A stretch of 62,929 bases of DNA, taken from IMG/VR virus record IMGVR_UViG_3300034392_000002; one strand, written 5' to 3'. The stretch comes from a virus. Numbering within the stretch: position 1 is the first letter of the stretch; each line of letters begins with the position of its first letter. A program made the translations under genes and the position numbers. The notes below the pieces were generated by a model that was not told the DNA's origin, made no database searches, and worked only from the letters and a program-made list of their open reading frames with translations. This document shows positions 631-62,929 of the stretch, piece by piece.

Positions 631-650
631 TCAACTAACAGAGGTTAACC

Positions 651-1415: not shown

Positions 1416-1505
1416 TTGACAGGAATAGAAAAAGCGACGGCGGGGTGCTACCAACACCCCGCCGCGTACAGCACTCGAACCCTCCATCCAAGAAAGGTTG
1501 CAAGT

Positions 1506-1709
1506 ATGGACGATACTAACACATCGTTACCGTCAAAATCTAACACTTCGTTACCGCACAAGCATCTCTGCCCGGAGCACAACGGCGTCTTCGAATGCAC
1601 GGACGAGACGGACGCCGACCTAGAGGTCGCTGTCTGTCCTGATTGCCGCGACAGGAAGGAAAAACCAGCCAAGCGAGCAAAAAAGCGGAAGGGGCGGAAA
1701 GGCAGATGA
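1506..1709 (+). CDS. small Cys/His zinc-ribbon-like protein with a basic tail
   Basis: Start refined to ATG 1506 (RBS agaaagg); CPEH...C...CPDC pattern; KRAKKRKGRKGR tail. Confidence 0.5.
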   Translation: MDDTNTSLPSKSNTSLPHKHLCPEHNGVFECTDETDADLEVAVCPDCRDRKEKPAKRAKKRKGRKGR

Positions 1710-1956: not shown

Positions 1957-1991
1957 GCTACTTGAATCCACAACAGAGAAGGGAACTACCC

Positions 1992-4229
1992 ATGTCAACT
2001 GAGAAGGAAGTCAGCCGGGAGGAACCGGCTGATGAAGCTATCGAAACCGTGACGCTCGATGCGTGGCGGCGGTATTTCACTGAGCAACTGCTCAAGCCTG
2101 AGACGACCATCGCGGAACACAAGGCGATGTTCCTCCGCGCCGTCGCGTCGGTTGGGAGCATCGAGGCGGAACTAAAGAAACTGAAGAAGGCGGAACTGGC
2201 GCGCATCGCTCGCACCAGCAGCCGCGACTCGAAGCATGATGAGTTGGTGCGCTACGCGCTCAATCGTATCACCGAACGCTTTACGCTCGGCCTGCATGAA
2301 CGCGGCGGCCTCGGCATGGAGTTCTTTATGAACGCCGAGAAGCGGCGCGCAGTCATCGCCGGGACAGTCGAAGCGATGACCGACGCTGACCTTGCAGACC
2401 ATCGGCGCTGCATCGAAGAGAGCAAACGAGAGCGCGCCGAGGCACAGCAAGAACAGCAGAAAGCAATTACCAATCCTGAGACCGGGGACGAGTTTAATAC
2501 CTTCATCCAACATCATGGGATGCTGGCGCTGGCGGCTCTCGCCCGCGACAAGAAGCTGCCGCGCAAACATGATGAGCAACGCGCCATCATCTATCGCGAA
2601 GGCATTAAGGCGATGAACGATGAGCAGCTTGCCCGCTACGACGAGTTAGTTGCGGGTCAGGCCCAGAAGCGGCGCGCCGAAGAGATGGTCAAGCGCGCAA
2701 CCATCAAGCGCATCGAGATTGGCGAAGGCAATTACATGGAGGTCGTCAGGCATTGGCACGGCCGGCGCGAGGAATGGCAATGGATAGTCGTTCTGGCCGA
2801 GCGCGAAGACCGCTCGACCTTTGATGAGTTGTGCATCGCTGCCCACAAGCTCGGCGGCTACTACCAGCGGGCCTATGCTCCGGCGAATAGTCCTGGCGGG
2901 TTCGCCTTTGACAGCGAAGAGCAGGCCGAGAAGTTCGTCATGCTTCAAAGCAAAGACATCTTCGAGATGTCTTGCCTTGAGCGCATCGTCACCCGCCGCG
3001 AGGCCGTCAGGCAAAACGCCATCACTCACTTCACTGGTCTCTCCGGCCGGATGGAGGAACGCGCCACCGACGAGCTACATCGCGAGCGTAAGGAAAACAC
3101 CGAGCGGCGCATCATGCAGGCCGAGAACGCGAGAGACAAGGCGCACGACCAGCTTGCGATGGCCGGCACGCTCAGGTCTTACGCCGTCGCCCTTCAAGAG
3201 CGCATCACGCGTCACACCGACCGTATTCGCTGGCGCACGCACGCCGAAGCCTTCGAGCGGCTGCTGGCGCGTGCTGGCTATCGCATGTCACAGGTTGAAT
3301 ACCCGTGGCCCGTCGTCGGCAAGCATACGCTCTCTGAAGTAGCGAAGCAGATAGGCGAGCGCGACGGCTCTATCCTCATCACGAACCGCATCAAGAAATT
3401 GTGTCGCGAGACTGAGGGCGAAAGCGTGGTCTTCGTCGGCAGCTACGCCGACACGCTCAGAGACTTCTATCGTCGAGCGCGCGTGCATCGCGTCAAAGGA
3501 TGGGCGCTTGATTCTATCCGTGAAGCGCTCGGTGATTTCAAGCGCTGCCGGCTGAACAATCTTGACACGCTGCCGGAGCTGCGCGCAGCGCTCAGGGAGC
3601 ATCAGGGCATCCGGGTCGCACGCACCGAACTGACGAAAGCGGAGAAGGTCATGCAAGACCTCTACGCTGGTCAGTTTCCCCCCGACTACTTCCCCACTCC
3701 CCCGGACGTGGCCGCCATCATGCTTGACTACGCAGACATCCAGCCGGGCATGACGTGGCTCGAACCTGAGTGCGGCGCGGCGCATCTCGCCAACGCTATC
3801 CACGAGAGACACCCTGACACCGATGGTCGCCTTATCGAGTTGTCCGGCCTGCTGGTGAACGCGTGCAGGGCGCAGGACTGGTCGCCGCTGCACACAGACT
3901 TTCTCAGCTTCGGCGATTGGCAGGAGGCGTTTGATAGGGTCATCGCTAATCCACCGTTCGGCTCAGACGGCCTCGGCACGGACATTGACCACGTGCGCCA
4001 GATGTACACGAAGCTCAAACCGCTGGGCCGCATCGTGACGGCGATGTCGGATGGCGTCTTCTATCGCGGCGACGCGAAGGCTCAGGAGTTTCGCGCGTGG
4101 CTCGATGAGGAAATCGCGGAGGATACACCGCGCGGCTTCTCCGTCGAACTGCCCGAAGGCGCATTTCTCAATTCGGATAGACCGACGAGCTGGGCGGCGC
4201 GCGTCGTCGTCATCGAAAGGGGGGCGTGA
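1992..4229 (+). CDS. N6-adenine DNA methyltransferase domain fused to a ~550-aa N-terminal region of unknown function
   Basis: Start refined to ATG 1992 (RBS agagaaggga); C-terminal motif I LEPECGAAH followed by motif IV VIANPPFG. Confidence 0.75.
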   Translation: MSTEKEVSREEPADEAIETVTLDAWRRYFTEQLLKPETTIAEHKAMFLRAVASVGSIEAELKKLKKAELARIARTSSRDSKHDELVRYALNRITERFTLGLHERGGLGMEFFMNAEKRRAVIAGTVEAMTDADLADHRRCIEESKRERAEAQQEQQKAITNPETGDEFNTFIQHHGMLALAALARDKKLPRKHDEQRAIIYREGIKAMNDEQLARYDELVAGQAQKRRAEEMVKRATIKRIEIGEGNYMEVVRHWHGRREEWQWIVVLAEREDRSTFDELCIAAHKLGGYYQRAYAPANSPGGFAFDSEEQAEKFVMLQSKDIFEMSCLERIVTRREAVRQNAITHFTGLSGRMEERATDELHRERKENTERRIMQAENARDKAHDQLAMAGTLRSYAVALQERITRHTDRIRWRTHAEAFERLLARAGYRMSQVEYPWPVVGKHTLSEVAKQIGERDGSILITNRIKKLCRETEGESVVFVGSYADTLRDFYRRARVHRVKGWALDSIREALGDFKRCRLNNLDTLPELRAALREHQGIRVARTELTKAEKVMQDLYAGQFPPDYFPTPPDVAAIMLDYADIQPGMTWLEPECGAAHLANAIHERHPDTDGRLIELSGLLVNACRAQDWSPLHTDFLSFGDWQEAFDRVIANPPFGSDGLGTDIDHVRQMYTKLKPLGRIVTAMSDGVFYRGDAKAQEFRAWLDEEIAEDTPRGFSVELPEGAFLNSDRPTSWAARVVVIERGA

Positions 4230-4823: not shown

Positions 4824-5594
4824 ATGCAAAAAGTTGATGACATTTTGAAGCAGAACATGACGACCGCAGAGCTGCTCGAACAACTCAAACCTATTGACCC
4901 CGATAAACTTCAACACACGGGAGACGGCATCTACGAAGCCCAGTGGTCGCCACACAACACCGACCGCGATTCAGACCTCGAAGTCCTCGGCATCACGCCA
5001 GCCGTCAGGATTATCGGGACAGTTTACGAGCCTGAAGATCTACCCGGATGGCGGGCCGTGCGCTTCAGCTACACGCCACCGAACGATGAGACGAGCAACG
5101 TGGTCGCCAGTAATGTGATGAGTCTCGAAGAGAGATACACACTGCCACCGCTGCCAACGTCGGCCAGCCAATACGGCGAACAGATCGAACTCGTTAAGCT
5201 CACCATCCATGAATTGAACAGGCAGCTCTCACAGGCGAAAGAGATGGTCACCATCCGCAAGGAAGCAATCACCCGCGAGGCCGCTGATAACCCGGCCAAT
5301 ACGAACGACGCCAAGCGCAAAGCTGCGGCGGCGCAGCAACTGGCAACGGATGAGGTCTACCAACAATTTTCTCAAATCATCCTCTGGCTCAACGACCTCA
5401 TTGTTCTGTGGGACGCACGCCGCTCCCGTCTCTACCGCGACTTTGAAGTTGCTCGCATCCATGAGCTGTACAACCACTTGGAGCGGGCATCGAGTGACGA
5501 TTACCAGCGCCGCTTGCAAGCCAACGCCGACACCTATCACAAGGCCAAGCAAGCTGCCGACTACGCCGCCAACCGCGCACGACAAAGCACTTAA
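4824..5594 (+). CDS. hypothetical coiled-coil protein
   Basis: 256-aa ORF with RBS gaaaggaa. Confidence 0.6.
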   Translation: MQKVDDILKQNMTTAELLEQLKPIDPDKLQHTGDGIYEAQWSPHNTDRDSDLEVLGITPAVRIIGTVYEPEDLPGWRAVRFSYTPPNDETSNVVASNVMSLEERYTLPPLPTSASQYGEQIELVKLTIHELNRQLSQAKEMVTIRKEAITREAADNPANTNDAKRKAAAAQQLATDEVYQQFSQIILWLNDLIVLWDARRSRLYRDFEVARIHELYNHLERASSDDYQRRLQANADTYHKAKQAADYAANRARQST

Positions 5595-5610: not shown

Positions 5611-5817
5611 ATGGCCTTCAACAACTGGTGGCACTGCCCGTTTTGCAGCGCCACTATTTATTACCACGGGCCGAGCGGCGAGACGCAGGGGCGTGTAGTG
5701 CGGCTGCACTTCAAGTATTGCCGCGTTATCGCCCCGCTCGTCTCGCGGGCCGCGCTCGTACACAAACAACACTATGAAAGGAAGAAACATGAAAGGAACC
5801 GCAAAGGCCGCAGATAA
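5611..5817 (+). CDS. small Cys-containing protein with a basic tail
   Basis: ATG 5611 after aggagg; WHCPFC...HFKYC pattern. Confidence 0.5.
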   Translation: MAFNNWWHCPFCSATIYYHGPSGETQGRVVRLHFKYCRVIAPLVSRAALVHKQHYERKKHERNRKGRR

Positions 5818-7852
5818 CGGCCACTCTAACAATTATGTCCCGGAGGCGGCGCTGGTAGATATTGCCGAAATCAAAGTAGCTCAACAGGCGCGTACTGATT
5901 TCGGCAACATCGAGGAGTTAGCTGCCAGCGTGCGCTCACAAGGAATCCTTCAACCGCTCTTGCTGAGGCCCAACCCAACAGGCTTTCACGCTAAACCAGC
6001 GGGCAATGGATTTCATTTTTATGAGGTGCACAACCGATATGGGAGTGTTATCAGCTCTCCCTTCTACTTTGGTAAAGATTTCCCCGGCAAGAAAACAGAA
6101 GCTCAAGCTAAGGCTGCGGCTGAGGCCGAAGCAGCACGTCTCAACGGAGGTAAATATCTACTCGTCGCTGGCGAACGGCGATTGAAGGCGGCACAGATGG
6201 CGAAGCTCAAGAAAGTGCCTGCCATCATTCGAGAGATGACAGACGAAGAGGCCAGCGCTGCACAGGTCACAGAGAACCTGCAACGCAAAGACCTCAAGCC
6301 GATGGAGGAGGCGCGCGGCTACAAGCAACTCGCAGAATTCAAGGGCCTCAAGACTCTGAAAGAGATTGCCGAGCGTGTGGGCAAGTCGGTCGAGCACGTC
6401 GCGTCCCGCTGGCCGCTTCTCAACCTGGTTGAGCCTGCGCAGCAGCTCGTAGATGAAGGACGGCTGCCACTAAAGCACGCCGCTTATCTCGCCACGCTCG
6501 GCGCAGAGACACAGCCGGCCGCGTTGACTAAGGCTTTCCAGACCCACTGGACACAAAAGGGTCAAGTCCCCAATTATGACAATCCACATAGCTTCGACAC
6601 TTTCAAGCGCGTCATCGAAATGGATGTGTTGCGCGACCTCTCAAATGCTCCGTGGCCGCTCAAACAAGTGTTTGAGCCTGCGCCGAAGGGCTGCGCTCCC
6701 AGTTGCGCTGTCTGCCCGTACAACACCGCTAACGAAGGCGCTCTTTTCGATGCCGGAAAGCAGACGCTCTGCGCCAATGCCGTCGGCTATAACAACAAGA
6801 TGGTGGCGTGGTGGACTATTCAGGCCGAAACGCTGAAGCGCTCGACTGGCCGCGAGGCCGTCTTTGTCGCCAACTCTCACAATCTGACCAAGACGGAGCG
6901 CAAACGCGGTGGATTGCCTGCAACCACTATCGGGCGCGACGAGTGCATGGTCATTCCAAGCAATGAAACCAAATGCGCCTCCTGGGAGCCGGCCGTCGTC
7001 GTGCAGGGCTACATAGACAACAAAACGCCCGGCCATGCCATTACCATCTGCCGCGACCGCAAGTGCAAAGACCACTTCGACCGCGCCGGGGCCTCGATGA
7101 GTAGCACCGTTACTGCCACCTCATCGTCGGCGTCAGACCTGCCGAACAAAGACCAATCGAAGAAGAACCGCGAGCGCAAGCAGGAGCTTTACGACTTGAA
7201 GGTTAATGAGCCGGTGCGCCGCAAGTCACTGGCCGAGGCCATTGCGACGGTCAAGTGGAAGAAGTTAGGACGCTCAGAGTGGAACACAATCGCTATTGCT
7301 CATTACTGCCGCGTGCGGTCGCACACTCAGCGGATTATCCGCGAAGTCTTCAAAGCGGCGACGCAGACAGATTTGCCGGACGCGCATATCGGTGAGACTG
7401 ATTTACTCGGCCATCAGAAACGCATCGGAGAGATTGTGGCCTCTCTGAGCGATGACCAACTCGCACAGTTCATGCTGCTCTGTGCCGTCGGTCACTTTGG
7501 CGAAAATGAGCACATGCACAAGCGTCAGAATCAGGGAGCGCTGAGAGCGTTCGTCGAACACTGGGGCGTCAACTATGCACTTCTCGACGCGACCGAGCGG
7601 GTCGCGCAGTCGTCAAAGAAATACATGGCTAAGCACACTGAGCATCTGCGGAAGGTCAGGGAAGGGAAGGCTGACGTGAAAGATGCTCCACACGTTTATG
7701 ATGAGCCGCCGCCTGAATCTGCGCAGCCCGCGCCAGCAGAACAACCTCAGCCAGTCTCAAAACAGCCAGCCGCTAAAAAGCCAACTACGAAGAAGGCCGG
7801 AGCCAAAAAGCCAGCGAAGGCAGCGGCGAAGAAAGGCGCGCGGAAGAAATGA
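5789..7852 (+). CDS. large ParB/Spo0J N-terminal-domain protein with a Cys-rich middle region and a Lys/Ala/Pro-rich tail
   Basis: ILQPLLLRP ... LLVAGERRLKAAQMA ... TENLQRKDL ParB boxes; ATG 5789 after gaaaggaag (5774 is an alternative start). Confidence 0.75.
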   Translation: MKGTAKAADNGHSNNYVPEAALVDIAEIKVAQQARTDFGNIEELAASVRSQGILQPLLLRPNPTGFHAKPAGNGFHFYEVHNRYGSVISSPFYFGKDFPGKKTEAQAKAAAEAEAARLNGGKYLLVAGERRLKAAQMAKLKKVPAIIREMTDEEASAAQVTENLQRKDLKPMEEARGYKQLAEFKGLKTLKEIAERVGKSVEHVASRWPLLNLVEPAQQLVDEGRLPLKHAAYLATLGAETQPAALTKAFQTHWTQKGQVPNYDNPHSFDTFKRVIEMDVLRDLSNAPWPLKQVFEPAPKGCAPSCAVCPYNTANEGALFDAGKQTLCANAVGYNNKMVAWWTIQAETLKRSTGREAVFVANSHNLTKTERKRGGLPATTIGRDECMVIPSNETKCASWEPAVVVQGYIDNKTPGHAITICRDRKCKDHFDRAGASMSSTVTATSSSASDLPNKDQSKKNRERKQELYDLKVNEPVRRKSLAEAIATVKWKKLGRSEWNTIAIAHYCRVRSHTQRIIREVFKAATQTDLPDAHIGETDLLGHQKRIGEIVASLSDDQLAQFMLLCAVGHFGENEHMHKRQNQGALRAFVEHWGVNYALLDATERVAQSSKKYMAKHTEHLRKVREGKADVKDAPHVYDEPPPESAQPAPAEQPQPVSKQPAAKKPTTKKAGAKKPAKAAAKKGARKK

Positions 7853-48116: not shown

Positions 48117-49268
48117 CTACTCTTTTCTTCTCCGGCGTCGGCCTCTGCGCTTCGCTTTGCGCGGTCGCAGTTTGCGCCGGCGCTTAAAGGGCAACACCAC
48201 GAGGCGCATCGCGCGGCGCTGGCCCTTCTCTTTTCGGTGGTCGTAAATCTGTGTGGTCTCGACGCGCGCGTGGCCGAGGAGCTGCTGCACGTCCGTAATC
48301 TCTGCGCCCTGGTCCAACAGGTGTGTAGCGAAGGTGTGGCGCAGGCCGTGCGGCGTGCAGGTGCTCTCGAGGCGCGCCTCGCAGGAACGCCGGAGCACGA
48401 TCTTGTAGGGAGCATCCTGACTTAACGGTTTGAGCGAGACTTCTCCCTGCCGCGTGATAGAGCAAAGGAAGGGACCGGGCTTTCCGCCTCGCAGCACAAT
48501 CCAATCGGTAAGTGCGCGCAAGGTTCCTTTGTCTTCGAGGAAGATGCGCCGCTCCTTATTGCCCTTACCAATGACCGTCAGTGTGCGCTCGCGGTGATTG
48601 AAGTTTGAGAGTTGTAATTCGATAGCCTCGGACTTTCGCAGGCCTGCGCCGGCGAGTAATGCAAGGAGCGCCGCGTCCCGCGCGGCGACCAGACTTCGGC
48701 CACGCCCTTGCGCGCACGCTGTAAAGAGAGCCGCCAACTCTTCGAGAGAAAGAGCGCGGGCGCGTTGGAGCCGCACGCCTTCGGCTGGCTTGACTTCGAG
48801 AATGCGGTCGAGTTGTTCCTGACTGATGAGTTTGCTTCTTCTGGCCTGCCGCATCACGCCCCTGATGGCCGAGAGCGTGGCGTTGACGGTCGCGGGTGCA
48901 AGCCCGTCGAAGAGCATCCGGGAGCGCAGGCGCTCGACCTCGACAAAGGTGATTTGCTTCCAGTTGATTTCTCCGACCGTGGTGCGCAAGTACCTGGCGA
49001 CGCGCCGGAGGTTTCTGAACATGGACTCGCGCGAACACTGGCTTGAGAGCGTGATGATGTAGTGGACGGCCGGGCTGATTTCCGCGACGGCGCTCTCTGT
49101 GAGAGCGCGTCGTTCCTCCTGCTCGATGAAGGCCGCGAGCGAGAGCCGGAGCGAGCGCTGGCGTAGCGTGGCAGCCTCCGGGCCGCCCTCGATCACGCGC
49201 AGGGGCCGAGGCTGTGCGGCCGCGCTCTCGCTCTCTGTGGAGTGATTCGTGATAATAGGCGTTTTCAC
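48117..49268 (-). CDS. int: tyrosine recombinase (integrase/XerC-D-like) with an Arg/Lys-rich tail
   Basis: HGLRHTFATHLLDQGAEITDVQQLLGHARVETTQIYDH. Confidence 0.85.
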   Translation of the reverse strand: MKTPIITNHSTESESAAAQPRPLRVIEGGPEAATLRQRSLRLSLAAFIEQEERRALTESAVAEISPAVHYIITLSSQCSRESMFRNLRRVARYLRTTVGEINWKQITFVEVERLRSRMLFDGLAPATVNATLSAIRGVMRQARRSKLISQEQLDRILEVKPAEGVRLQRARALSLEELAALFTACAQGRGRSLVAARDAALLALLAGAGLRKSEAIELQLSNFNHRERTLTVIGKGNKERRIFLEDKGTLRALTDWIVLRGGKPGPFLCSITRQGEVSLKPLSQDAPYKIVLRRSCEARLESTCTPHGLRHTFATHLLDQGAEITDVQQLLGHARVETTQIYDHRKEKGQRRAMRLVVLPFKRRRKLRPRKAKRRGRRRRRKE

Positions 49269-53928: not shown

Positions 53929-54819
53929 TCAAACAGCTTTCGCTGTGCTAGTGACTGGCAGGCGGCAGAAGCAGTCGCGCTTCCCTTCTCCATGTGGCAC
54001 TTCGCCGGAGCCGCCGCACTCAGCGCAGTGTGGATCGGGCGGACTCAGTAAAACTGTCGGTTGTTTGTGATGGCCGTTATTTGATTGAGAGAGAAAGGCC
54101 GCAATAGACTCGTCGGCCTCGCCTGAACGGAAAATGGTGGTCGCGTAGCCACCCGGGTTAGAGATGCCGTCAGACTTCAGATGTTCGGCGTAGGCCCGGC
54201 ATTCGGTTAAAGAAAATCTTGACCCTACACACACGGCGGGCTGTTTTTTGCCCGCCTGCTTTGTGTGTGTTTTTTTTCTATTTCTTTTAAGATTTTCTTT
54301 ATCCTTATATGGTACTAAAGATTCTTTAGTGTTTTTTGTGTTTAACTCTAAAGAATCTTTAGTAGTTAATCCTAAAGAATCTTTAGTAGTTAAAGACTTG
54401 TCAGCTACTAAAGAATCTTTAGTAGCTGAATCGAGCATCATGCGCACATGCGGGCCGCTCTTATTTACTTTCAACGCGGTGATTTGAGCTTCAAGAGTGG
54501 CCTCATCTTCATCCTCGATGCTGATGCGATAACCGTACGTCGAGCCACGACGAACCCGGTAGATATAACCGTGCTCGGTCGCGCGCTTAATGCCTTCGGT
54601 GACACTGGGCATCGAGAGACCGCTGAGGCTGACAATGTCCGTGAGACTCAAGAGTACTTCCTTTACGTGGTAGCCGAAGGTGTAGCGGATGGACAGCTCA
54701 ACGACCTTCAGTTCTGCGAGAGAGGTAATCTCTGGCAACCACTCGTCGTAAAAGACATTCGGACTCTGCGTGTATTTCAGAGCCGGTGCCTGTCGCATTC
54801 TGGATGGCTGTTTTGCCAC
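53929..54819 (-). CDS. replication initiator, lambda O-like winged-helix N-terminus, C-terminal CxxCGGSG zinc knuckle
   Basis: NVFYDEWLPEITSLAELKVVELSIRYTFGYH...LSLTDIVSLSGLSMPSVTEGIKRATEHGYI; internal iterons. Confidence 0.65.
   Translation of the reverse strand: MAKQPSRMRQAPALKYTQSPNVFYDEWLPEITSLAELKVVELSIRYTFGYHVKEVLLSLTDIVSLSGLSMPSVTEGIKRATEHGYIYRVRRGSTYGYRISIEDEDEATLEAQITALKVNKSGPHVRMMLDSATKDSLVADKSLTTKDSLGLTTKDSLELNTKNTKESLVPYKDKENLKRNRKKTHTKQAGKKQPAVCVGSRFSLTECRAYAEHLKSDGISNPGGYATTIFRSGEADESIAAFLSQSNNGHHKQPTVLLSPPDPHCAECGGSGEVPHGEGKRDCFCRLPVTSTAKAV
54268..54312. promoter_or_regulatory. AT-rich tract adjacent to the iterons (candidate DNA-unwinding element)
   Basis: gtgttttttttctatttcttttaagattttctttatccttatatgg in an otherwise GC-rich genome. 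Confidence 0.6.
54314..54425. repeat. Four palindromic iterons CTAAAGA(A/T)TCTTTAG (candidate origin)
   Basis: Copies at 54314..54330, 54348..54362, 54372..54386 and 54405..54425. Confidence 0.8.
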
Positions 54820-54843: not shown

Positions 54844-56157
54844 CTAGGAAGCGGTAGCCGTCGCTGCTTCGGCCTTCTGTTGACAGAGCCGGGTCAGATG
54901 TTCTGTGAAAAGCGTGGCCGAGTGCTTAGAGAGTTCGTCAACCTTGCATTTCGTCAGGCGCATGCATTCAGCATCCGCGTCAACACCTGCGTCCTGGGCC
55001 AACTGCTTGATGATGTTCTCCTGCGCTCGCGTAATGAGGTCGCTTTTCGTCTTCGCCTGCGGGTTGGCAGGAAATTTAACGTGCGATGTGAGTTGGGAGG
55101 TCGAGATTGAACCTGCTGGCGCTACTGGCGTCTGGCCTGCGCTCACGGTCGCTTGTGACGGTTGCTGAGCTTCAAGCCAGAACTTTACGATGAGGATATG
55201 CTCACAGCGGTACTGTGGATTCTCTTTGACTAGCTCAACAAACTCGGCGCAGGTGCAATGCACCTTTTTCTTCTCGTCTTTCCATATCTCGTATCTCTCC
55301 GTCGGCGTCGTCAGGCTCGGCATTGTGACGGCGTAACGGTCTTCATCACGTTCGACCGTTCCCGGCATTGCGGCGATGGCCCGCGCTCGCCTCTCCATCT
55401 GGCTTGTGTCATCACTGTGCGCGTCAATTTGCGCTGTGGCAGCGGGGATGTAAGTGGTCCGTTCAGGTGCGGGTGCGCCAGCGGCAAGCCACCCCATGAT
55501 TTCTCTCGCGAGAGAACCGTCGGGCTTGGCAATAATTCTGCCTGAGAGAGAAACCATGCGCGTCTTCTCAATGGTCAGGGTGTTATCAATTGAGAGCTGA
55601 CCGATGATGTCAAATTCATATTCGACGCCGTCGCGCTGGATGGCGGCGAGTCCGATGCGTCGGGGTACAGACTTGTTGCGGTCATCTCGCTCGACGACGT
55701 AATCAGTCTTGACGCGCATTGTCGCAATGACGTGCATCGGAGCTTCGAGGATGGCGGCGATCAGCTTGTTCTGAAGCGGCGTGCCGACTCTGCCCCACTC
55801 AGCAAACGAGTTGCCGCCGCGTGAGTTGACTTGGTCGAGCACGCCGCCCTCTGCATTCCACGCGTGCGAAAGACTATCAATCACGATGACACTGTAGCCA
55901 GCTTCGGCCGCGGCGTTGATGGCGGCGATATAATGATTAGGGTTGAAATTGGATAGAGCGCAGGAGTCGAACTCGAAGATGTCGCTGTACAGCGAAGCCG
56001 AATTGCGCTCGGTGTCGAGCACGGCGATCCGACCCTCGGCAGCCAGTTCCTTTGCCAGCACCAGCGCCGTGTATGTTTTGCCGCTCCCTGATGGCCCCAT
56101 CAATGCCATGCGCAGTCTGCGTTGTACTTTTGTAGCCTTGATAAATTGAAAGGTCAT
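54844..56157 (-). CDS. AAA_24 (Sak4-like RecA-fold) ATPase with a C-terminal SWIM zinc finger
   Basis: LMGPSGSGKTYTA, VIVIDSLSHAW; CTC...(14)...CEH. Confidence 0.65.
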   Translation of the reverse strand: MTFQFIKATKVQRRLRMALMGPSGSGKTYTALVLAKELAAEGRIAVLDTERNSASLYSDIFEFDSCALSNFNPNHYIAAINAAAEAGYSVIVIDSLSHAWNAEGGVLDQVNSRGGNSFAEWGRVGTPLQNKLIAAILEAPMHVIATMRVKTDYVVERDDRNKSVPRRIGLAAIQRDGVEYEFDIIGQLSIDNTLTIEKTRMVSLSGRIIAKPDGSLAREIMGWLAAGAPAPERTTYIPAATAQIDAHSDDTSQMERRARAIAAMPGTVERDEDRYAVTMPSLTTPTERYEIWKDEKKKVHCTCAEFVELVKENPQYRCEHILIVKFWLEAQQPSQATVSAGQTPVAPAGSISTSQLTSHVKFPANPQAKTKSDLITRAQENIIKQLAQDAGVDADAECMRLTKCKVDELSKHSATLFTEHLTRLCQQKAEAATATAS

Positions 56158-57833: not shown

Positions 57834-59363
57834 TTAACTAGGTGGTCGAAAGCACCTGCCCTTTGGCCCAGTGTCTTTGTTGATAATCGAGCGACGGCGT
57901 TGTCGCGGCGGCAGACGCTGCGTTAAGAGATTGCTATGCCGTCTCTGGATAATTTTAATCAGATGTTGGTGTTTGACACCTAAACTCCGTGCGGCACGAG
58001 TCACTTGCCCATCGGTTTCGCGGAGAGCTTGATTAATCAGGTAAGCTTCGTAACGCTGGATTTTTTGCTTTAACGTTATGCCGTTCCCATTTTCACTGAG
58101 ATCCATCTCAAGCCCAAATGTCGCTAACACCTTTTCTGCACAATTCAGCAGGCGTGGTGTGAGCGTCTGTTTCTCTGACGCACCGAGATTGTTGCTCGCT
58201 GCCGTATACAAAGCCAGAGACTCGGGAGCGCTGAACGTTTCTCCCAATTCTTCAATCAGCGTCAGCGCGATGGTCGCCGCTGTGGTGACATCGCCGATCT
58301 GCAAGGCCATCTCCCTCGCGTCTTCCAGAATTTCATGCGCTTGCTGCTTCTGCTCTTGTCTGGCGAGGGCAATGCCGTAGGTGGTCTGGATACGGACGTA
58401 TAACAACTGCTCGCCTCCGCTTTCAAGAGACTCAAGCGCGGCCCGCGCGACTTGCGCGGCGGCAGCGGGTTGTTGTTCGGCTAGATAGACGTGGGCCAGC
58501 GTGTCGTCAAACTCAGCTATGTTGTAATGGTCATTTAAGGTGATGGCTATCGCTCGCGCACGCATCAGGTGCCGTCGGGCATCTTCGTGGCGTCCTAATG
58601 CCAGGTACAGTTCGCCGAGATTATTTTGTACGGACGCAATGAAGCGTGGTGTGCCAGCCTGCTCAAAATGAAAACTTGCGGCCTCCATTTCGATCAATGC
58701 CCGGTCGAGATAGTCTGGCCGCTGTTCTGCGAATCCGACATTTCTCAGTGCCAGCGCTAGCTCGCTGCGAAATTTACCCCGCAAGACATCTCCACCTACA
58801 CTATCGAGCAACGTTTCGCCGCCCAACAGATACTGCAAAGCATCGTGATGCCGGCCCCGCCGACCTAAGACCATTGCGAGATTGTAGATGGCGCGTGCGC
58901 GTTGTAGGCTCTGACTCCGCTCTCCAAGCAACGACAACACGCTCTCCAATATGACGTGGGCTTCATCTAATTCCCCGCCCCGCCAATAACAGATCGCTAG
59001 CTCGATCATCGCGGCGGCCTGTTCCTCTCGTGCTCCGAGAGATTCACACAGCGACTGCGCTTCACTGAGCAGGTCTTTTGCCAGCGGCCCAGCTCCGGGA
59101 AATTGCTGCGCGCTTCCTAAGCGTTCGGTGAGCGTGCCGGCGCATAACAGCAGCTCGGCGCGCGCGATGTCACTCAGGCCTGCGATCCGCACTTCTACGC
59201 CAATACCATCCCAAAACGGTTCAAGCATCGCCAGAGCGCCGTCATATTGCCCTAACTCCATTAACTCACGGGCGGCCGTGCAGCACGATCTGACATGGTT
59301 TTCAATCCCATTATCAGAAGTGTTAATCCCTATTGTTCGCATGTTCTTTCTTGCCCGGCTCAT
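57834..59363 (-). CDS. TPR-repeat regulator with a C-terminal Fis-type HTH
   Basis: Repeated helical TPR-like units (ARAIYNLAMVLGRRGRHHDALQYL, NNLGELYLALGRHEDARRHL ...); C-terminal YEAYLINQALRETDGQVTRAARSLGVKHQHLIKII. Confidence 0.65.
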   Translation of the reverse strand: MSRARKNMRTIGINTSDNGIENHVRSCCTAARELMELGQYDGALAMLEPFWDGIGVEVRIAGLSDIARAELLLCAGTLTERLGSAQQFPGAGPLAKDLLSEAQSLCESLGAREEQAAAMIELAICYWRGGELDEAHVILESVLSLLGERSQSLQRARAIYNLAMVLGRRGRHHDALQYLLGGETLLDSVGGDVLRGKFRSELALALRNVGFAEQRPDYLDRALIEMEAASFHFEQAGTPRFIASVQNNLGELYLALGRHEDARRHLMRARAIAITLNDHYNIAEFDDTLAHVYLAEQQPAAAAQVARAALESLESGGEQLLYVRIQTTYGIALARQEQKQQAHEILEDAREMALQIGDVTTAATIALTLIEELGETFSAPESLALYTAASNNLGASEKQTLTPRLLNCAEKVLATFGLEMDLSENGNGITLKQKIQRYEAYLINQALRETDGQVTRAARSLGVKHQHLIKIIQRRHSNLLTQRLPPRQRRRSIINKDTGPKGRCFRPPS

Positions 59364-59518
59364 AATTCGGTCACTTCCTCTTTTAGAAATCCTTAACTCC
59401 GTTAGTCGCTGTGGTTGCTAATGGTGATATGATGTGCGCGTGCAACGACTTCCCGACGCTTTCTGCCACCAATTCCACGGCGGAGATTAATACCCCGCCA
59501 ACTATTAAGGAAAACCCA

Positions 59519-59725
59519 ATGCAAAAAATGAAAATGATGTGTGCGTCCTTGATTTTAGTTTTCACCCTGAGCATGTCCATCCAAGCACAATCACCGTTAC
59601 CAGAGTGTGACGGACAATCGCAAATGCCCGGCGTAGTGTGCCGAAACAATAGCGAAGTGCAGCCACCAGATGATGCGCTGACGGCTATCTATCTCGGTCT
59701 GATGGGACTCTTATCAGGCATCTAA
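59519..59725 (+). CDS. small secreted Cys-containing peptide with a hydrophobic C-terminus
   Basis: ATG 59519 after aaggaaaa; signal peptide MQKMKMMCASLILVFTLSMSIQA|QS; 68 aa. Confidence 0.45.
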   Translation: MQKMKMMCASLILVFTLSMSIQAQSPLPECDGQSQMPGVVCRNNSEVQPPDDALTAIYLGLMGLLSGI

Positions 59726-59822: not shown

Positions 59823-61031
59823 TTAGTTGGTCGTTAGTCGTTTATGGTTGCATCTAGCAACGCCCTTCTCATAGCCCTCAGGATAATACAGGCCACTCCC
59901 ACCGCAGTCAGGACATTTACGAACATCGCCCTGCGGGGTGGGAGTCGGCTCGCGGCTGGCCTCGGCCTTCCCTTCCTCAGTGAGTTGCCGCTGGTCTTTC
60001 TTCCAGAGCCGTCGCCGCAGGTGTTCGGCGAGGAACGAAGGCACAGATGAGATGGTAGTGCGAGCGGCAGCAATCTTCAACTCAGCGACGAGGACCTCGG
60101 CCAGCTCCGTCCAACGCTCTGCATCAGCGTGAGACGGAGCGACTCCCGTTAGCTCTGTGGTTGTCGTTTTCAGCCGTTCGACCATGCCAGCCAGCGCAGC
60201 GTCATCATCAATCGTTCGCTGGTCTTTAAGAAAAGTCTTAGCTTCGCCGGAAGCAGTTGATTCTGTAAGAGATGAACTCTGGTCACTCTGAGCAGATTCT
60301 GCACTGGGTGGTCTGAGCAGATTCGACTCTGTGTGGTCTGAGTGGTCTGTGCTGTTCACCTGCACAGGGTTGCCGTCCAAATCGAAAGGAAGGCGCGCTT
60401 CTTCCGGGAGATGAACAGAATAGAGATTGCCGTCCTGCTCGCCATGAATTGACTGCCATGAAACTAGCCCGACCGCGCGCAGGTGCAGCAGATTATCTCT
60501 GAGCGTATGAGTCGAACCGATGTCTGAGCCTTTCATCAATTCCATTCGGCGCAACCTGACAGTCACTACCGGGACTATCGCGCCGCGGGTTTTCGAATAC
60601 AGGTAATCGTAAAGCTGTTTTGATTTTCCTCTAAAGAGGCCGTGGCGGATGGCATCCCGAACGATGGAGTTTGCGGCCTTCATATAATCGCGAGCTGGCG
60701 CGATTGCGGTCTGTGCAGTTGTCCTGCTCAGAGTAGAACGACTGCCCTGTGCAGCCTTCCTGCTCTGAGTAGTTTGTCTGCTCGGAGTTGATGGCCTGCT
60801 CTGTGCAGGACTGATGATCTGAGTGGCCTGTGCTGAAGAGGTGCTCTGAGTAGGTGAACTGCTCTGAGCATCCGAAGTGCCTAGAGTACGCTCTGCTTCG
60901 GGTTGAGCTTCAGCTCTCCCCATGAGACGGTTCATTACACTTTTAACGGTCGCATTCTCGGCAGGGGTAATTGATACAGACTCAATACTATACTTCCTGC
61001 GCCTGCGCGACTGCGTTTGGTCTTTCGACAC
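59823..61031 (-). CDS. second O-like winged-helix initiator / partition-adaptor candidate with a Ser/Thr/Gln-rich N-terminus and a CxxCGGSG zinc knuckle
   Basis: GTG start after aggaga; LYDYLYSKTRGAIVPVVTVRLRRMELMKGSDIGSTHTLRDNLLHLRAVGLV; C-terminal KCPDCGGSGLYYPEG. Confidence 0.5.
   Translation of the reverse strand: MSKDQTQSRRRRKYSIESVSITPAENATVKSVMNRLMGRAEAQPEAERTLGTSDAQSSSPTQSTSSAQATQIISPAQSRPSTPSRQTTQSRKAAQGSRSTLSRTTAQTAIAPARDYMKAANSIVRDAIRHGLFRGKSKQLYDYLYSKTRGAIVPVVTVRLRRMELMKGSDIGSTHTLRDNLLHLRAVGLVSWQSIHGEQDGNLYSVHLPEEARLPFDLDGNPVQVNSTDHSDHTESNLLRPPSAESAQSDQSSSLTESTASGEAKTFLKDQRTIDDDAALAGMVERLKTTTTELTGVAPSHADAERWTELAEVLVAELKIAAARTTISSVPSFLAEHLRRRLWKKDQRQLTEEGKAEASREPTPTPQGDVRKCPDCGGSGLYYPEGYEKGVARCNHKRLTTN
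60285..60351. repeat. Dyad-containing repeats TCTGAGCAGATTC (2 exact copies plus degenerate copies) inside the initiator-like gene
   Basis: 60287..60299 and 60312..60324 are identical but read in different codon phases (SNLLR vs ESAQS). Confidence 0.8.
60722..60871. repeat. Degenerate ~18-bp periodic repeats with core CTGCTC(A/T)GAG
   Basis: cctgctcagagtag, cctgctctgagtag, cctgctctgtgcag, gtgctctgagtag, tgctctgagca; the core is the reverse complement of the 60285 motif. Confidence 0.65.
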
Positions 61032-61794
61032 GGCTGATAATCTCCTGAGTTAGTTGCTCGTAGTCTTGATGTGCACGGCTCCCGTGAGCGTAATCAACGA
61101 TCGGCATACGCGCGGCAGAGGATTCCACTAAAGTCGCCGTGTGCCTGATGATGGTATCTAGGGCCAAGCCCTCAAAATCCTCTTTAATCTTCTCCAGCAC
61201 GTCTTTATTGACATTCACGTTGCTGCGATGAATGGTCGCCAGCGCATAGATTTGCAGCGCCGGATTAGATTCTTCCATGACATCGTTAACGATGGCCATC
61301 AAGCGCTTTAACGCAGCGTAAGCAAACCAGTTCGTTTGAATCGCTACAATCAGGTGTGTGGCGGCACAGAAGGCGTTAACAGTAGAAATCCCAAGCGTCG
61401 GCGCACAATCAACGACCGTGTAATCGAAATCGCTCTCGAGCTGCGCCAGTGCACGCGCCAGCCGCATCTCGCGATTGATAACGGAAACGAGCTTCAGGTC
61501 AATCTCAGCCAGCGCCAGATGGCCGGGCGCAAGTTGGAGGTTAGGGCCGACGGGCTTGATGATCGCTTGCATGCCAGGAGTCTTTTCCGACATCAGAGCA
61601 TAGGAACTCAGCATCTCGTCTTGCGGTGTCTCCTGACCTAAGTGGTCAGTAGCATTAGCCTGTGGGTCCAAGTCCACCAGCAGCACGCGCCGGTTGGAAC
61701 GCGCCAGACAGGTTGCCAGATTAACCGCTGTCGTTGTCTTTCCGACGCCGCCCTTTTGATTTGCGATGACGATAGTTTTCATCTGACTGCTCAT
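60988..61794 (-). CDS. parA: ParA/Soj-type partition ATPase
   Basis: KTIVIANQKGGVGKTTTAVNLA deviant Walker A. Confidence 0.85.
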   Translation of the reverse strand: MSSQMKTIVIANQKGGVGKTTTAVNLATCLARSNRRVLLVDLDPQANATDHLGQETPQDEMLSSYALMSEKTPGMQAIIKPVGPNLQLAPGHLALAEIDLKLVSVINREMRLARALAQLESDFDYTVVDCAPTLGISTVNAFCAATHLIVAIQTNWFAYAALKRLMAIVNDVMEESNPALQIYALATIHRSNVNVNKDVLEKIKEDFEGLALDTIIRHTATLVESSAARMPIVDYAHGSRAHQDYEQLTQEIISRVERPNAVAQAQEV

Positions 61795-61820: not shown

Positions 61821-62072
61821 TTACTTTGAATAGTCCGACTCAGAGGAACTGTTCTGACAGATAATGTTACCAGCTACTTCAATGCGAAACTCTTTACTAT
61901 CAAACTCGCCGCCTATCAAAACAGGCTCGCGGCTAGGTGCGCCGATTGGGTTGCGCCATAATCGCCAGCCCGCAACCCGCACACAAGTCAACTCTAATTC
62001 ATAGTCGTCGGCTATGCGGAATCTCTGACCATCTACAATGACCACAACCGCGTGGTAGCTAGGGTTGCTCAT
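61821..62072 (-). CDS. hypothetical protein
   Basis: 83-aa ORF. Confidence 0.45.
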   Translation of the reverse strand: MSNPSYHAVVVIVDGQRFRIADDYELELTCVRVAGWRLWRNPIGAPSREPVLIGGEFDSKEFRIEVAGNIICQNSSSESDYSK

Positions 62073-62140
62073 CTATATGCTCTCGTTGCTTTCAAGGCTT
62101 TACCTGTTCATCTCAGCAGGGAAGGGAAGTGGTCACAGTG

Positions 62141-62389
62141 TTACTTGCGCTTCTTCGTCGCCGATGTCTTCGATGGTTGTTTCTTGCTGTTGCCATTTTC
62201 GGCGTGAACAGCCGGAGGCTTACCGCGCGGCTTGTGCTCGAAGTTGTCCACATCAGCCGCTCGAATCATATAGAGAGGCCCGAACTTCTGTGCTGGCAGC
62301 CGGTCTGCTGTAATCAGATAGCGGACCCACTTCACACTCCGACCCATCCTTTTCGCAGCTTCTTGCGTTGTTAATAGTTCGTCGCTCAT
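62141..62389 (-). CDS. excisionase/MerR-type HTH protein with a basic tail, probably leaderless
   Basis: LLTTQEAAKRMGRSVKWVRYLITADRLPAQKFG; no SD; the ATG lies ~10 nt from a -10-like hexamer. Confidence 0.6.
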   Translation of the reverse strand: MSDELLTTQEAAKRMGRSVKWVRYLITADRLPAQKFGPLYMIRAADVDNFEHKPRGKPPAVHAENGNSKKQPSKTSATKKRK

Positions 62390-62397
62390 GGCGAACG

Positions 62398-62427
62398 ATA
62401 ATATAGCCTCGCGGCTAGTTTTTGCAA
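62398..62427 (-). promoter_or_regulatory. Leftward promoter candidate (TTGCAA - 16 nt - TATATT) overlapping operator copy 1
   Basis: Read on the minus strand; operator TATAGCC-TCGC-GGCTA at 62402..62417. Confidence 0.5.
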
Positions 62428-62519
62428 TATTTATTTTTCGTGTTGAAGAAAACCATACAAAAACCCAGCAAATTCACACCTTTTTATTCCTCAAATAAAA
62501 AGACATTTCCTTAAATATG

Positions 62520-62548
62520 TTGACTAATTATAGCCGCGAGGCTATAAT
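62520..62548 (+). promoter_or_regulatory. Near-consensus sigma70-type rightward promoter TTGACT - 17 nt - TATAAT overlapping operator copy 2
   Basis: ttgact (62520..62525), tataat (62543..62548); palindrome TATAGCC-GCGA-GGCTATA at 62529..62546. Confidence 0.7.
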
Positions 62549-62802: not shown

Positions 62803-62929
62803 TCAACATTCCAACCTTCAAGAAAGAGAGACACCGACCATGACGCAGACCCTACAGCCTACTTTCGTACCGCTCGACCAGCTCGGCAAACATATCGTTA
62901 GTCAATCAACCGCCGACGTGCTTGAGCGC
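62803..62929. repeat. Terminal direct repeat copy 2, identical to 1..127
   Basis: Exact 127-bp identity with the window start. Confidence 0.95.

Follow-up and report, generated by a model that had tools for sequence, protein, structure and literature searches.

A ParA-linked putative initiator of the lambda O superfamily with a candidate replication origin inside its own gene

The RepA_N replicons of Firmicutes (pSK41, pAD1, pLS32) encode initiators with an N-terminal winged helix, a variable centre and a C-terminal host-interaction domain, and their origin iterons are found in the middle of the rep gene and are translated along with it. Plasmids of the pAD1 type are partitioned by a separate ParA (RepB) and DNA-binding protein (RepC). 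Among tailed phages, P1 and N15 carry plasmid-type replication and a ParA module apart from, or added to, their lytic functions. The N15 origin is inside repA, and P1 resolves multimers by means of the tyrosine recombinase Cre.

The origin of phage lambda lies wholly within O, between the parts that encode the DNA-binding and the C-terminal domains, and consists of 18-bp dyad iterons, one of which is removed by a 24-bp deletion, followed by a 39-bp region of high AT content (PMC6022878). The repABC plasmids of Alphaproteobacteria combine a ParA-type ATPase and an initiator in one operon, with the origin inside repC (PMC3155836). ParB proteins bind ParA through an N-terminal motif that is unstructured and basic (PMC12462528). 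I compare with these systems a locus from a tailed phage, IMG/VR record IMGVR_UViG_3300034392_000002; the whole of that stretch of DNA, 62,929 nt, will be referred to as the window.

The last 127 nt of the window (62803..62929) are the same as its first 127 (1..127), giving a unit length of 62,802 bp for the circular assembly. It has a complete set of tailed-phage genes (major head protein, protease, portal, large terminase and tail proteins) and, besides these, plasmid-type replication and partition genes in the form of a ParA-X cassette. An earlier note on this DNA had described a parA gene with the motif KGGVGKTT, followed at a 44-nt overlap by an open reading frame of 402 codons, and both were found, on the minus strand. 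The parA gene (60988..61794) encodes a 268-aa Walker-type partition ATPase without an N-terminal HTH, its deviant Walker A box being IANQKGGVGKTT, with matches to Pfam AAA_31 (6.5e-51) and to phrog_164, ParA-like (1.3e-64). Its 3' end overlaps the start of the second gene, which I will call X (59823..61031, minus strand; 402 aa, GTG start). Two small genes on the same strand (61821..62389), for an HTH_17 protein (62141..62389) and an 83-aa product (61821..62072), are probably the start of the operon, and the order HTH_17-ParA-X is seen again in loci L003 and L178. Next to them lies a divergent promoter region (62400..62548) with inverted copies of a 14-bp palindrome (62404..62417 and 62531..62544) that overlie promoter-like hexamers and are probably operators. 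As sites for X they were rejected, their word being different from that of X, and no X sites were found as an operator in the operon promoter. Downstream of X come a small ORF on the opposite strand and then a TPR/HTH_8 regulator.

The X protein is laid out as an N-terminal peptide, a first linker, a winged helix, a second linker, a three-helix domain and a zinc knuckle. The gene call in the public collection is only 286 aa long and starts at M117 (P0001), but the 402-aa form is supported by an N-terminal peptide that relatives have in common, RRRKY(S/Q)IESVxITPAENATVKSVM, and by the lengths of the homologues, nearly all of which are 350-450 aa. In the window, this basic peptide is RRRRKYSIESVSITPAENATVKSVMNRLMGR (60918..61010, minus strand; codons ~8-38), with a helix predicted at residues 23-36 (pLDDT ~80 in the AF2 model). 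The models of the winged-helix DNA-binding domain (60396..60698, minus strand; codons ~112-212), whose recognition helix falls at about residues 174-187 (GSTHTLRDNLLHL), and of the conserved three-helix C-terminal domain (59958..60200, minus strand; codons ~278-358; …ELKIAAARTTVSSVPAFLAEHLRRRLWK) both have pLDDT >90. The knuckle, CPDCGGSG-x17-C-x-H (59844..59915, minus strand; codons 373-396), is common to the family of O-like initiators. X has no match in Pfam, PHROGs, NCBIfam or a PDB sequence profile search, and a separate AF2 model of its C-terminal 140 residues, though confident, gave no informative structural match.

X had been proposed to be a paralogue of the O-like initiator encoded elsewhere in the window (53929..54819, minus strand; 296 aa). 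The gene of the latter, which holds four 17-bp palindromic iterons (54314, 54347, 54371, 54407) and then an A-rich run, serves within the window as the reference example of the layout that X also has. BLASTP of the one protein against the other aligns only eight residues of the knuckle (E 0.032), so the pairwise comparison alone would wrongly dismiss paralogy. Alignment of the two family profiles, however, covers 270 columns (hhalign 99.5%, E 1.8e-22) and spans both the winged helix and the C-terminal CPDCGGSG knuckle, and members of the O-like family carry PF04492/PF13730. The best viral matches to X in a Foldseek search of BFVD are lambda-O N-terminal, replisome-organizer and initiator proteins, those to O N-terminal proteins reaching E 3e-5. 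Against the PDB, the full X model found generic winged-helix matches only, among them the RepA_N N-terminal domains 5kbj, 4pql and 4pt7, and that search therefore does not separate an initiator from a centromere binder. The likeness to RepA_N is one of generic winged-helix structure: X has no RepA_N Pfam match and belongs to a different phylum. Both proteins do end in a knuckle of the form C(P/A)(D/E)CGGSG...C, as had been observed. The proposed paralogy is thus supported by the profile alignment and the BFVD matches, and judged by such comparisons X is a diverged, distant member of the lambda-O-like initiator superfamily.

The earlier note had also pointed to a DNA motif inside the gene. The 13-mer TCTGAGCAGATTC occurs exactly at 60287..60299 and at 60312..60324 and nowhere else in the window, just after the winged-helix region, where the paralogue and lambda O likewise carry iterons. 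In a gene of 1.2 kb, a pair like this, no more than 30 nt apart, is expected by chance with a probability of about 5e-4. The 13-mers are part of two 25-bp units, the iteron pair (60287..60336), which TRF reports as a 25-bp tandem repeat at 60287..60342 and which have the sense-strand core GAAT-CTGCTC-A-GA. The two copies are indeed translated in different phases (S-N-L-L-R and E-S-A-Q-S), and the core is indeed a dyad, G(A/T)G(T/C)(C/A)G-AAT-CTGCTC, of imperfect symmetry. Counted over the window with at most one mismatch, the 10-mer CTGCTCAGAG occurs 18 times as against 6.9 expected, a number reached in 0 of 100 shuffles, and 10 of the 18 occurrences fall in 60286..60871. That interval includes a second set of repeats, the linker-1 array (60704..60871), where the ~18-bp periodicity claimed for the reverse complement of the motif proved real at about 60704..60868, both by TRF (period 18) and as a repeat family. 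It has about nine units with a period of 18 bp (6 codons), and the half-site GAGCAG occurs exactly five times on its sense strand, oriented opposite to the sites in linker 2. The array is in frame and encodes a disordered, low-complexity linker of the type xxAQSxx. As an in-frame coding repeat, it is by itself no argument for selection at the level of DNA; the argument rests on the 25-nt pair and on the comparison with relatives.

About 175 loci related to X make up the comparison set. In the DNA of linker 2, the members of the best 16-nt pair lie at a distance of 25 nt in 46 of the 69 loci that gave a score (p 5.7e-17 for the excess) and of 24 nt in nine. The 25-nt pair is present in 46-50 of 84 loci, and two copies at that distance are necessarily read in different frames. 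Each iteron unit has an A-rich centre flanked by inverted arms that are specific to the lineage. These dyad words, found in the DNA of both disordered linkers, differ between lineages and are identical within a locus: the linker-2 word recurs in linker 1 (95 occurrences in 13.4 kb, 7.1 per kb), while the linker words are essentially absent from 418 kb of flanking DNA (about 0.02 per kb) and likewise from the DNA that encodes the domains. Four close relatives have GAATCTGCTCAGA twice, GAAACCGCTCAGA twice and GAAACTGCTCAGA twice, with one pair differing by 1 nt in sequence; between close relatives (L001, L177, L178) a change in one copy is matched in the other, and no part of the X gene is better conserved among the four than the DNA of linker 2. 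The signature of the recognition helix tracks the iteron word, a correlation that is confounded by shared ancestry.

After the iteron pair comes an AT-rich element (60201..60242; GCTAAGACTTTTCTTAAAGACC...ATTGATGATGAC on the sense strand), which is conserved throughout the family, in the form of a direct repeat TAAGAC-N-TAAGAC, and encodes KTFLKD...DDD. It is 76% AT, compared to a background of 40%, and the four-fold-degenerate sites are A or T in 93% of cases within it as against 29% elsewhere in the gene. Its DNA consensus, CCTAAGACTTCTTTTAAGACTAATAC, is found in 71 of 97 loci, and the element is a candidate DNA-unwinding region. Only two well-formed sites, with imperfect dyads, stand ahead of it in the window. 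Exact occurrences of the 18-mer TAAGACTTCTTTTAAGAC in IMG/VR were limited to three known X loci, three phages that are AT-rich and where the match is likely due to chance, and L181, whose protein has no detectable relation to X. The claim that the repeats are under selection at the DNA level is strongly supported by the family-wide out-of-frame pair, the copies that change together, the confinement of the words to the linkers and the fixed synonymous sites.

Like lambda O, X has a winged-helix DNA-binding domain, then a flexible linker, then an interaction domain at the C-terminus, and as in lambda the origin, in X a candidate origin, is placed inside the initiator gene. In both, A-rich-centred dyads recur every ~24-25 bp ahead of some 40 bp of AT-rich DNA, and the whole is translated as linker (PMC6022878). 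The iteron sequence varies by lineage among lambdoid initiators as it does in the X family. Lambda O belongs to PF04492 (Phage_rep_O), a family that does not itself recognise X. Other differences are that X usually has two well-formed iterons and lambda O four, that X is extended at the N-terminus by a tail of some 110 residues with another array of sites, and that it ends in a zinc knuckle. The translation of X is, furthermore, coupled to that of ParA or of an AAA_22 ATPase, and its occurrence extends beyond phages to plasmid-like contigs and large MAG contigs. Lambda O has a gene for a P-like loader downstream and X does not: no helicase-loader (P/DnaC-like) gene lies beside X in the window, L001, L003, L038 or L179. 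The lack of a loader counts against X as an initiator with its origin at this place, as do the finding of no cluster of DnaA boxes near X, the small number and imperfect symmetry of the well-formed sites, and a C-terminal domain with no structural kin that can be recognised.

In 69 of 88 loci the gene immediately before X encodes a ParA homologue, and in the other 19 the partner is an AAA_22 ATPase. The arrangement is that of type I partition, with the DNA-binding partner, here X, directly downstream of ParA, and the operon holds no other candidate for a ParB. The basic N-terminal peptide is conserved in a subset of the relatives of X. The N-termini vary with the type of ATPase upstream: those linked to ParA include KRKRGLQRGLSDIV and PKKKLGLSVPPAL, which are ParB-like, and those linked to AAA_22 have different peptides. 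[quoted passage not shown] I propose that the tail contacts ParA. The peptide of the window's own X, RRRRKYSIESV..., is a variant different from KRKRGLQRGLSDIV. X lacks the ParB/Srx CTPase domain of ParB, has no ParBc or RHH match in Pfam, and has the fold of an O-like winged helix. Plasmids of the pAD1 type have a separate partition partner in RepC, and the ParA-X locus encodes none. The repABC operon is like ParA-X in uniting ATPase and initiator and in its intragenic origin, a candidate one in X, but it has a dedicated ParB (RepB) and parS and a RepC of an unrelated family. ParA-X has two genes only, and it is the initiator itself that bears the ParB-like tail. P1 and N15 differ in their canonical ParB/SopB, separate centromeres, and initiators (P1 RepA and the primase-helicase RepA of N15) unrelated to X.

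The X family has at least 1,462 homologues, with 260 matches in species-representative genomes and 455 in metagenome contigs, annotated everywhere as "hypothetical"; tblastn found nothing in INPHARED phages or PLSDB plasmids. One contig, L038, bears indirectly on function. It is 10,653 nt long with a 141-nt end overlap, on which its circularity rests, and besides cargo it has genes for HigBA, ParA and X, the last being its sole candidate for replication. The 25-nt pair inside X, after which comes CCTAAGACTTCTTTTAAGACT, is the one short-range repeat on this contig. Among the loci examined whole, L034 (35 nt) is the only other with an end overlap, so the evidence from small circles amounts to one good case. 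HigBA-ParA-X also occurs on a contig of 165 kb. A contig of 110 kb with X encodes an RPA-type Rep as well, and X need not be the sole initiator there.

The account I favour, and hold with some confidence, is that X is an initiator with an origin inside its own coding sequence, which probably doubles as a centromere. The idea of an origin or centromere embedded in the gene, already put forward from this one sequence, is made credible by the ori-lambda-like layout and by the small circle that has no other replication gene. The winged-helix dimer would bind the dyad words in the DNA encoding both disordered linkers. The two sites spaced by 25 bp on the 3' side of the winged-helix coding part would nucleate a complex, which would open the adjoining AT-rich element, and the C-terminal helical domain and zinc knuckle would, as in the other O-like initiator, recruit host replication proteins. 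The basic tail, on its long disordered tether, may meanwhile contact ParA, the same array of sites, including the nine or so units of linker 1, probably also serving as centromere. An initiator role, a contact with ParA and a shared array would together make of ParA and X a two-gene cassette for replication and segregation, which could maintain the phage genome as a plasmid, separate from the O-like lytic module at 53.9-56.2 kb. That a single polypeptide is both initiator and ParA adaptor, an O-type initiator that acquired a ParB-like tail and whose array is both origin and centromere, is a more tentative proposition, which I rate as somewhat short of even.

A centromere, too, has the look of a dense multi-copy array beside ParA, and sequence by itself therefore does not tell it from an origin. 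X might then act in partition only, as a new kind of winged-helix centromere binder in the role of ParB, replication being left to the O-like module or to others. The canonical position behind parA in overlapping frames, the prevalence of ParA as the upstream neighbour, the ParB-like peptides (PMC12462528), the nine or so units of linker 1 and the want of any other ParB in the operon all fit this explanation, and winged-helix centromere binders do exist, pNOB8 AspA being among the Foldseek matches. I nonetheless consider it unlikely, since it does not account for the homology of X to O-type initiators over its whole length, knuckle included, nor for an element under DNA-level selection that adjoins the pair as in ori-lambda; it would leave L038 without any replication gene, and it sits poorly with the loci where X is paired with an AAA_22 ATPase. 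Initiators and centromere-binding proteins commonly regulate themselves, and the palindromes would fold into hairpins in mRNA, so the sites might instead serve expression, through autoregulation by X or through mRNA structure. With no X words in the promoter, autoregulation would have to work from inside the gene, and neither version explains the AT-rich element (its synonymous sites fixed and the same across lineages that differ in X specificity), the ori-lambda-like spacing or the small circle with no other Rep gene. I regard a purely regulatory function as improbable; a role in expression could coexist with that of initiator and origin.

Two further explanations seem to me very improbable. 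One would deny the repeats any function in DNA and see them as minisatellites, generated by replication slippage in the tolerant DNA of disordered linkers rich in S, T and Q. Tandem repeats are frequent in such linkers, those of X fall in regions predicted by AF2 to be disordered, and the linker-1 array is in frame, with periods of 9 and 18 nt. A 25-nt duplication, on the other hand, shifts the frame, and yet a pair at the same place, made of different words, persists in at least 46 diverged loci. The words, moreover, are dyads confined to both linkers, the copies change together, linker-2 DNA is better conserved than that encoding the domains, and synonymous sites are fixed in the adjoining element, all of which leaves slippage strongly disfavoured already. 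The other, given as little credence, would make the repeats a target of a tyrosine recombinase, as arm or core sites (attP, or dif-like); a gene for such an enzyme immediately follows X in 13 of 76 loci and is present elsewhere in the window. Most loci, the window included, have no recombinase beside X, and the conserved element is a direct repeat and not a spacer flanked by inverted arms. If a core inside X were used for integration, the gene would be split, yet it is intact in every context. The attP version was rejected on account of the intact gene and the usual absence of an adjoining recombinase; no tRNA was found by a scan for integration sites in the window or in 31 loci, and no att-like junctions were seen.

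To return to X as an initiator with an intragenic origin, a phage-plasmid lifestyle is plausible for the phage of the window. The circular genome assembly, ParA and the second initiator speak for it. The XerC/D-like tyrosine recombinase encoded at 48117..49268 (minus strand), possibly an integrase or a multimer resolvase, speaks against it. The circular assembly is compatible with extrachromosomal maintenance, yet equally expected of virion DNA, and the GC skew, being governed by the direction of transcription, has no usable turning point at 60 kb. For P1 and N15 the plasmid lifestyle has been demonstrated, whereas for this phage it is only suggested.

ParA-X looks like a compact cassette for plasmid maintenance, common in uncultured soil Acidobacteria, and would represent a replicon type that has gone unstudied. 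Phages, small circles and large plasmid-like contigs of the Pyrinomonadaceae and Blastocatellia appear to have in it one of their main modules for maintenance. The locus would extend the lambda principle, an origin within the initiator gene, to a new phylum, and it offers a natural example of a protein linker whose sequence is dictated by overlapping DNA sites in different frames. For annotation, out-of-frame repeats next to an AT-rich block whose synonymous sites are fixed can serve as a sign of an intragenic origin. The comparison also raises the testable idea that the initiator itself is the partner of ParA. If that is true, the amino acids of the linkers would be largely a by-product of the DNA sites they encode, the lineage-specific words, there being several cassettes per genome, would mark out incompatibility groups, and the sister version would have exchanged ParA for the AAA_22 ATPase with the tail changed to match. 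I know of no genetic tools for the Pyrinomonadaceae/Blastocatellia, abundant as these bacteria are in soil, and a two-gene replicon with a mapped candidate origin would be a direct starting point for shuttle vectors.

The parA gene of the window (60988..61794, minus strand) encodes a 268-aa protein with the sequence IANQKGGVGKTT, which matches Pfam AAA_31 (6.5e-51) and phrog_164 (1.3e-64) and is, judged by its sequence, a clear Walker-type partition ATPase. Its reading frame overlaps by 44 nt that of the gene after it, here called X, an ORF of 402 aa that begins with GTG (59823..61031, minus strand). Searches of Pfam, NCBIfam, PHROGs and the PDB sequences gave no match for X, and tblastn against INPHARED (phages) and PLSDB (plasmids) gave none either. 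In the public protein collection X stands (as P0001) at only 286 aa, starting at M117, a call that leaves out the conserved N-terminal peptide and the repeat array of the first linker. I take the 402-aa form to be right, since the peptide RRRKY(S/Q)IESVxITPAENATVKSVM is common to the N-termini of relatives and most homologues have 350-450 aa; automated gene callers probably shorten many members of the family. The AlphaFold2 model, built from an alignment of 120 sequences, has a short helix near the N-terminus (residues 23-36), disorder over residues 40-113 (linker 1), a confidently predicted winged helix (121-206, pLDDT >90), a second disordered linker (215-270, linker 2), a three-helix domain (278-358) and, after it, a small zinc knuckle.

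An earlier note had taken X for a paralogue of the O-like initiator of the same phage (53929..54819, minus strand, 296 aa; phrog_678), and this relationship is borne out by profiles and structure. BLASTP between the two proteins matched C(P/A)(D/E)CGGSG alone. Homologues of the O-like protein carry PF04492 (Phage_rep_O) and PF13730, and alignment of their profile with that of the X family gave a probability of 99.5% (E 1.8e-22) over 270 columns, spanning the winged helix and the CPDCxGxG...GVxxCKH knuckle. Foldseek comparison of X with viral models placed lambda-O N-terminal, replisome-organizer and replication-initiator proteins at the top (E 3e-5 to 1e-3), and comparison with the PDB returned generic winged helices, including the N-terminal domains of RepA_N initiators and the pNOB8 centromere binder AspA. 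The profile match and the viral models place X, as a distant relative, in the O-like initiator superfamily.

The homologues of X number more than 1,462, and scans for the family matched species-representative genomes 260 times and metagenome contigs 455 times. Where the record is named, the source is a MAG of Pyrinomonadaceae, Blastocatellia or other Acidobacteriota, and one MAG often has several copies. Thirteen IMG/VR viral contigs carry the family too. Among the 88 loci with enough upstream sequence, a ParA homologue stands directly upstream of X in 69, and its place is taken in the other 19 by an AAA_22 (TniB/ExeA-like) ATPase of about 280 aa; loci of the latter kind include L002, L018, L020, L033, L034, L041, L043, L045, L055, L070, L071 and others. 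The AAA_22 ATPase has a conserved N-terminus, PFSISPNPxxLYLTP. A tyrosine recombinase follows X on the 3' side in 13 of 76 loci, and HTH_17, PIN and HigBA genes recur as neighbours.

The repeats noticed earlier within the X gene of the window all held up on recounting. TCTGAGCAGATTC occurs exactly at 60287..60299 and 60312..60324 and nowhere else in the window (a pair expected by chance at about 5e-4), both copies being part of a 25-bp tandem repeat and translated, as had been claimed, in different frames (SNLLR and ESAQS). The reverse-complement word CTGCTCAGAG, allowing at most one mismatch, is found 18 times in the window, against 6.9 expected, and 10 of these fall in 60286..60871. The 18-bp array (60704..60868) is also real; it is in frame and encodes the xxAQSxx linker of the protein. 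The sense strand of X has five exact GAGCAG hexamers in linker 1 and two exact CTGCTC in linker 2, so that the arrays are oriented toward each other across the winged-helix DNA.

The same organization extends through the family. Linker-2 DNA was taken from related loci as the stretch between the codons for ...LPEE and KT..DDD, and the best 16-nt direct pair in it (scoring at least 13/16) has a spacing of 25 nt in 46 of 69 loci, 24 nt in 9, and 23, 26 or 27 nt in 14 together (p = 5.7e-17 compared with an even spread). The repeat unit consists of an A-rich centre (AGAAA or GAAT) and inverted arms that are lineage-specific and identical within one locus. Examples are AGAAA-CTAGTCAGACTAG and GAAAGTACTCAGAGTAC, each present twice, CTGGCAG-AAA-CTGCCAG, CCCTCTAG-TTT-CTAGAGGG, GGGCAG-AAT-CTGCCC and, in the window, GAAT-CTGCTC-A-GA, also twice. 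Four close relatives exhibit concerted change: two copies of GAATCTGCTCAGA in the window, two of GAAACCGCTCAGA in locus L001, two of GAAACTGCTCAGA in L178, and in L177 two variants with one copy each. Within the gene, conservation in these four is highest in linker-2 DNA (77-87% invariant columns, as compared to 60-70% for the winged helix).

The commonest repeated 8-mer of linker 2 was also sought elsewhere. It occurs 95 times in 13.4 kb of linker-1 DNA (Poisson p ~1e-204), not at all in 15.0 kb of winged-helix coding DNA, once in 22.0 kb of C-terminal coding DNA and 8 times in 418 kb of flanks; the sites are confined to the X gene. Across lineages the signature of the recognition helix (GSxxTxxxN..) goes along with the word: GSRVTFDxN with CTAGTC, GSTKTLFLN with GTACTC, GSERTMYKN with CCACTCAC/GTGGTG, and GSMxTVDxA with GGTAGTACC. 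This covariation is suggestive of specificity, with shared ancestry as a confounding factor. On the proposed reading, X binds the sites in its own linker DNA. A minisatellite grown by slippage does not account for out-of-frame copies that keep a fixed position and spacing across lineages with differing words.

A second element, conserved and AT-rich, follows the pair of sites. The 35 nt after the conserved KT of X average 76% AT, against a background of 40%, and four-fold-degenerate third positions in the 12 codons after KT are 93% A/T (n=301), against 29% across the remaining codons of the gene (n=10,021); the lysine codons of the element are mostly AAG. The DNA consensus CCTAAGACTTCTTTTAAGACTAATACTGAGAA...TGATGATGA is present in 71 of 97 loci, with a distance from TAAGAC to TAAGAC of 12 nt in 62, 13 nt in 7 (the window among them, at 60201..60242) and 14 nt in 2, where the second word lies in another reading frame. 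The element is identical across lineages, whereas the iterons are not. Both it and the linker sites are under constraint at the level of DNA. A scan of IMG/VR for exact matches to its 18-mer core led to a gene (606..1667, plus strand) in L181, a lower-GC viral contig (IMGVR_UViG_3300002026_000415), encoding a 353-aa protein with an N-terminal HTH and no relatedness to X detectable by hhalign (E 0.07). The gene has four repeats, each an A-tract with the palindromic GGATGTnCACATCC, at a period of about 24-25 nt, and some 50 nt past them TAAGACTTCTTTTAAGAC, an exact copy of the 18-mer, which is read as KTSFKT. A wider set of initiator genes may therefore have the AT-rich element in common.

The layout of the X gene agrees element by element with that of ori-lambda, which lies inside gene O, between the regions for the N-terminal DNA-binding and C-terminal domains that a flexible linker joins (PMC6022878). 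Ori-lambda has four iterons, 18-bp hyphenated inverted repeats joined by adenines, each bound by an O dimer; a deletion of 24 bp takes out one iteron, and an adjoining 39-bp region of high AT content unwinds (PMC6022878). The O-like gene of the window has four perfect or near-perfect 17-bp palindromes ACTAAAGATTCTTTAGT (54314..54330, 54347..54363, 54371..54387 and 54407..54423; 0.08 expected). They encode TKDSL repeats, and an A-rich run comes after them, to all appearances a textbook in-gene origin on the ori-lambda model. The gene immediately upstream encodes an AAA_24 ATPase (54844..56157), and the phage thus has two instances of an ATPase gene followed by an O-like initiator gene.

The linkage of ParA and X is tight, and no alternative candidate for a ParA partner was found in ParA-X operons. 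The N-termini of X proteins fall into classes that correspond to the type of upstream ATPase: those linked to ParA begin with basic peptides such as KRKRGLQRGLSDIV, PKKKLGLSVPPALR and PKKKTQGIFDNLRK (RRRRKYSIESV... in the window), and those linked to AAA_22 are unrelated to them. The part of ParB that contacts ParA is an unstructured motif at the N-terminus, which has a central Arg/Lys and becomes helical upon binding (PMC12462528). The likeness of the basic tail of X to this motif is offered as a lead. The window also encodes a protein of 692 aa whose N-terminal domain is ParB-like, of the nuclease type (5774..7852, plus strand), near a large DNA methyltransferase (1962..4229, plus strand), a pairing common in phages. 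It is an unlikely partner for the parA product, since it lies on the other strand, about 8.5 kb off across the circular junction.

The main rival explanation, that the X sites are a centromere and nothing else, I consider rather improbable. The X region is moderately likely to be an origin, and probably serves also as a centromere by way of the N-terminal tail of X. Homologues always found integrated would have spoken against the earlier note, and that is not the pattern here. L038 (DASYML010000196.1; the entire contig, 10,653 nt, of a k141 assembly) is probably circular, given its 141-nt end overlap. Besides HigBA, ParA and X it encodes a cyclase, a dehydrogenase, a response regulator and four Crp-like regulators; no second replication gene besides X was found in its 10,653 nt. 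Its sole short-range direct repeat is a 25-nt pair within X (5117..5166), followed by CCTAAGACTTCTTTTAAGACT. The cargo of this small plasmid-like element is unusual in its four paralogous Crp/cNMP-binding regulators. L034 (8.5 kb, 35-nt end overlap) has the order AAA_22, X, recombinase, contigs of 165-188 kb carry (HigBA-)ParA-X amid accessory genes, and one 110-kb contig with X has an RPA-type Rep as well.

Other features surround X in the window. The AT-rich stretch upstream of the HTH_17 gene has two divergent promoter-like sites, each with a copy of a 14-bp palindrome (TAGCCTCGCGGCTA / TAGCCGCGAGGCTA; 62404..62417 and 62531..62544); the copies are probably operators that serve a different regulator from X. 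The word recurs in part, as GGCTCGCGGCT, at 61924..61936 within an 83-aa ORF and at 59947..59957 within the 3' part of X. Downstream of X are a regulator, a TPR protein of 509 aa with an HTH_8 of Fis type at its C-terminus (57834..59363, minus strand), and a small ORF (59411..59725, plus strand) in which an internal start gives a signal-peptide-like MQKMKMMCASLILVFTLSMSIQA...; its product may be a secreted protein or lipoprotein expressed in lysogeny.

Lambda O, RepA_N and RepC are known cases of an origin that lies within the gene for its initiator. The version coupled to ParA, with a tail and two arrays, is undescribed, as is the entire acidobacterial family. Genes for the major head protein, protease, portal, large terminase and tail proteins mark the window as a tailed phage, and 1..127 is identical to 62803..62929, so that the assembly is a circle of 62,802 bp. 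An ORF starting at 62841 runs on into the window start. No tRNA genes were found anywhere in the window. Its XerC/D-like tyrosine recombinase (48117..49268, minus strand; Phage_integrase 1.6e-31) could be either an integrase for phage integration or a resolvase of plasmid multimers. A phage-plasmid lifestyle is plausible in view of the assembly as a circle, a second initiator and ParA.
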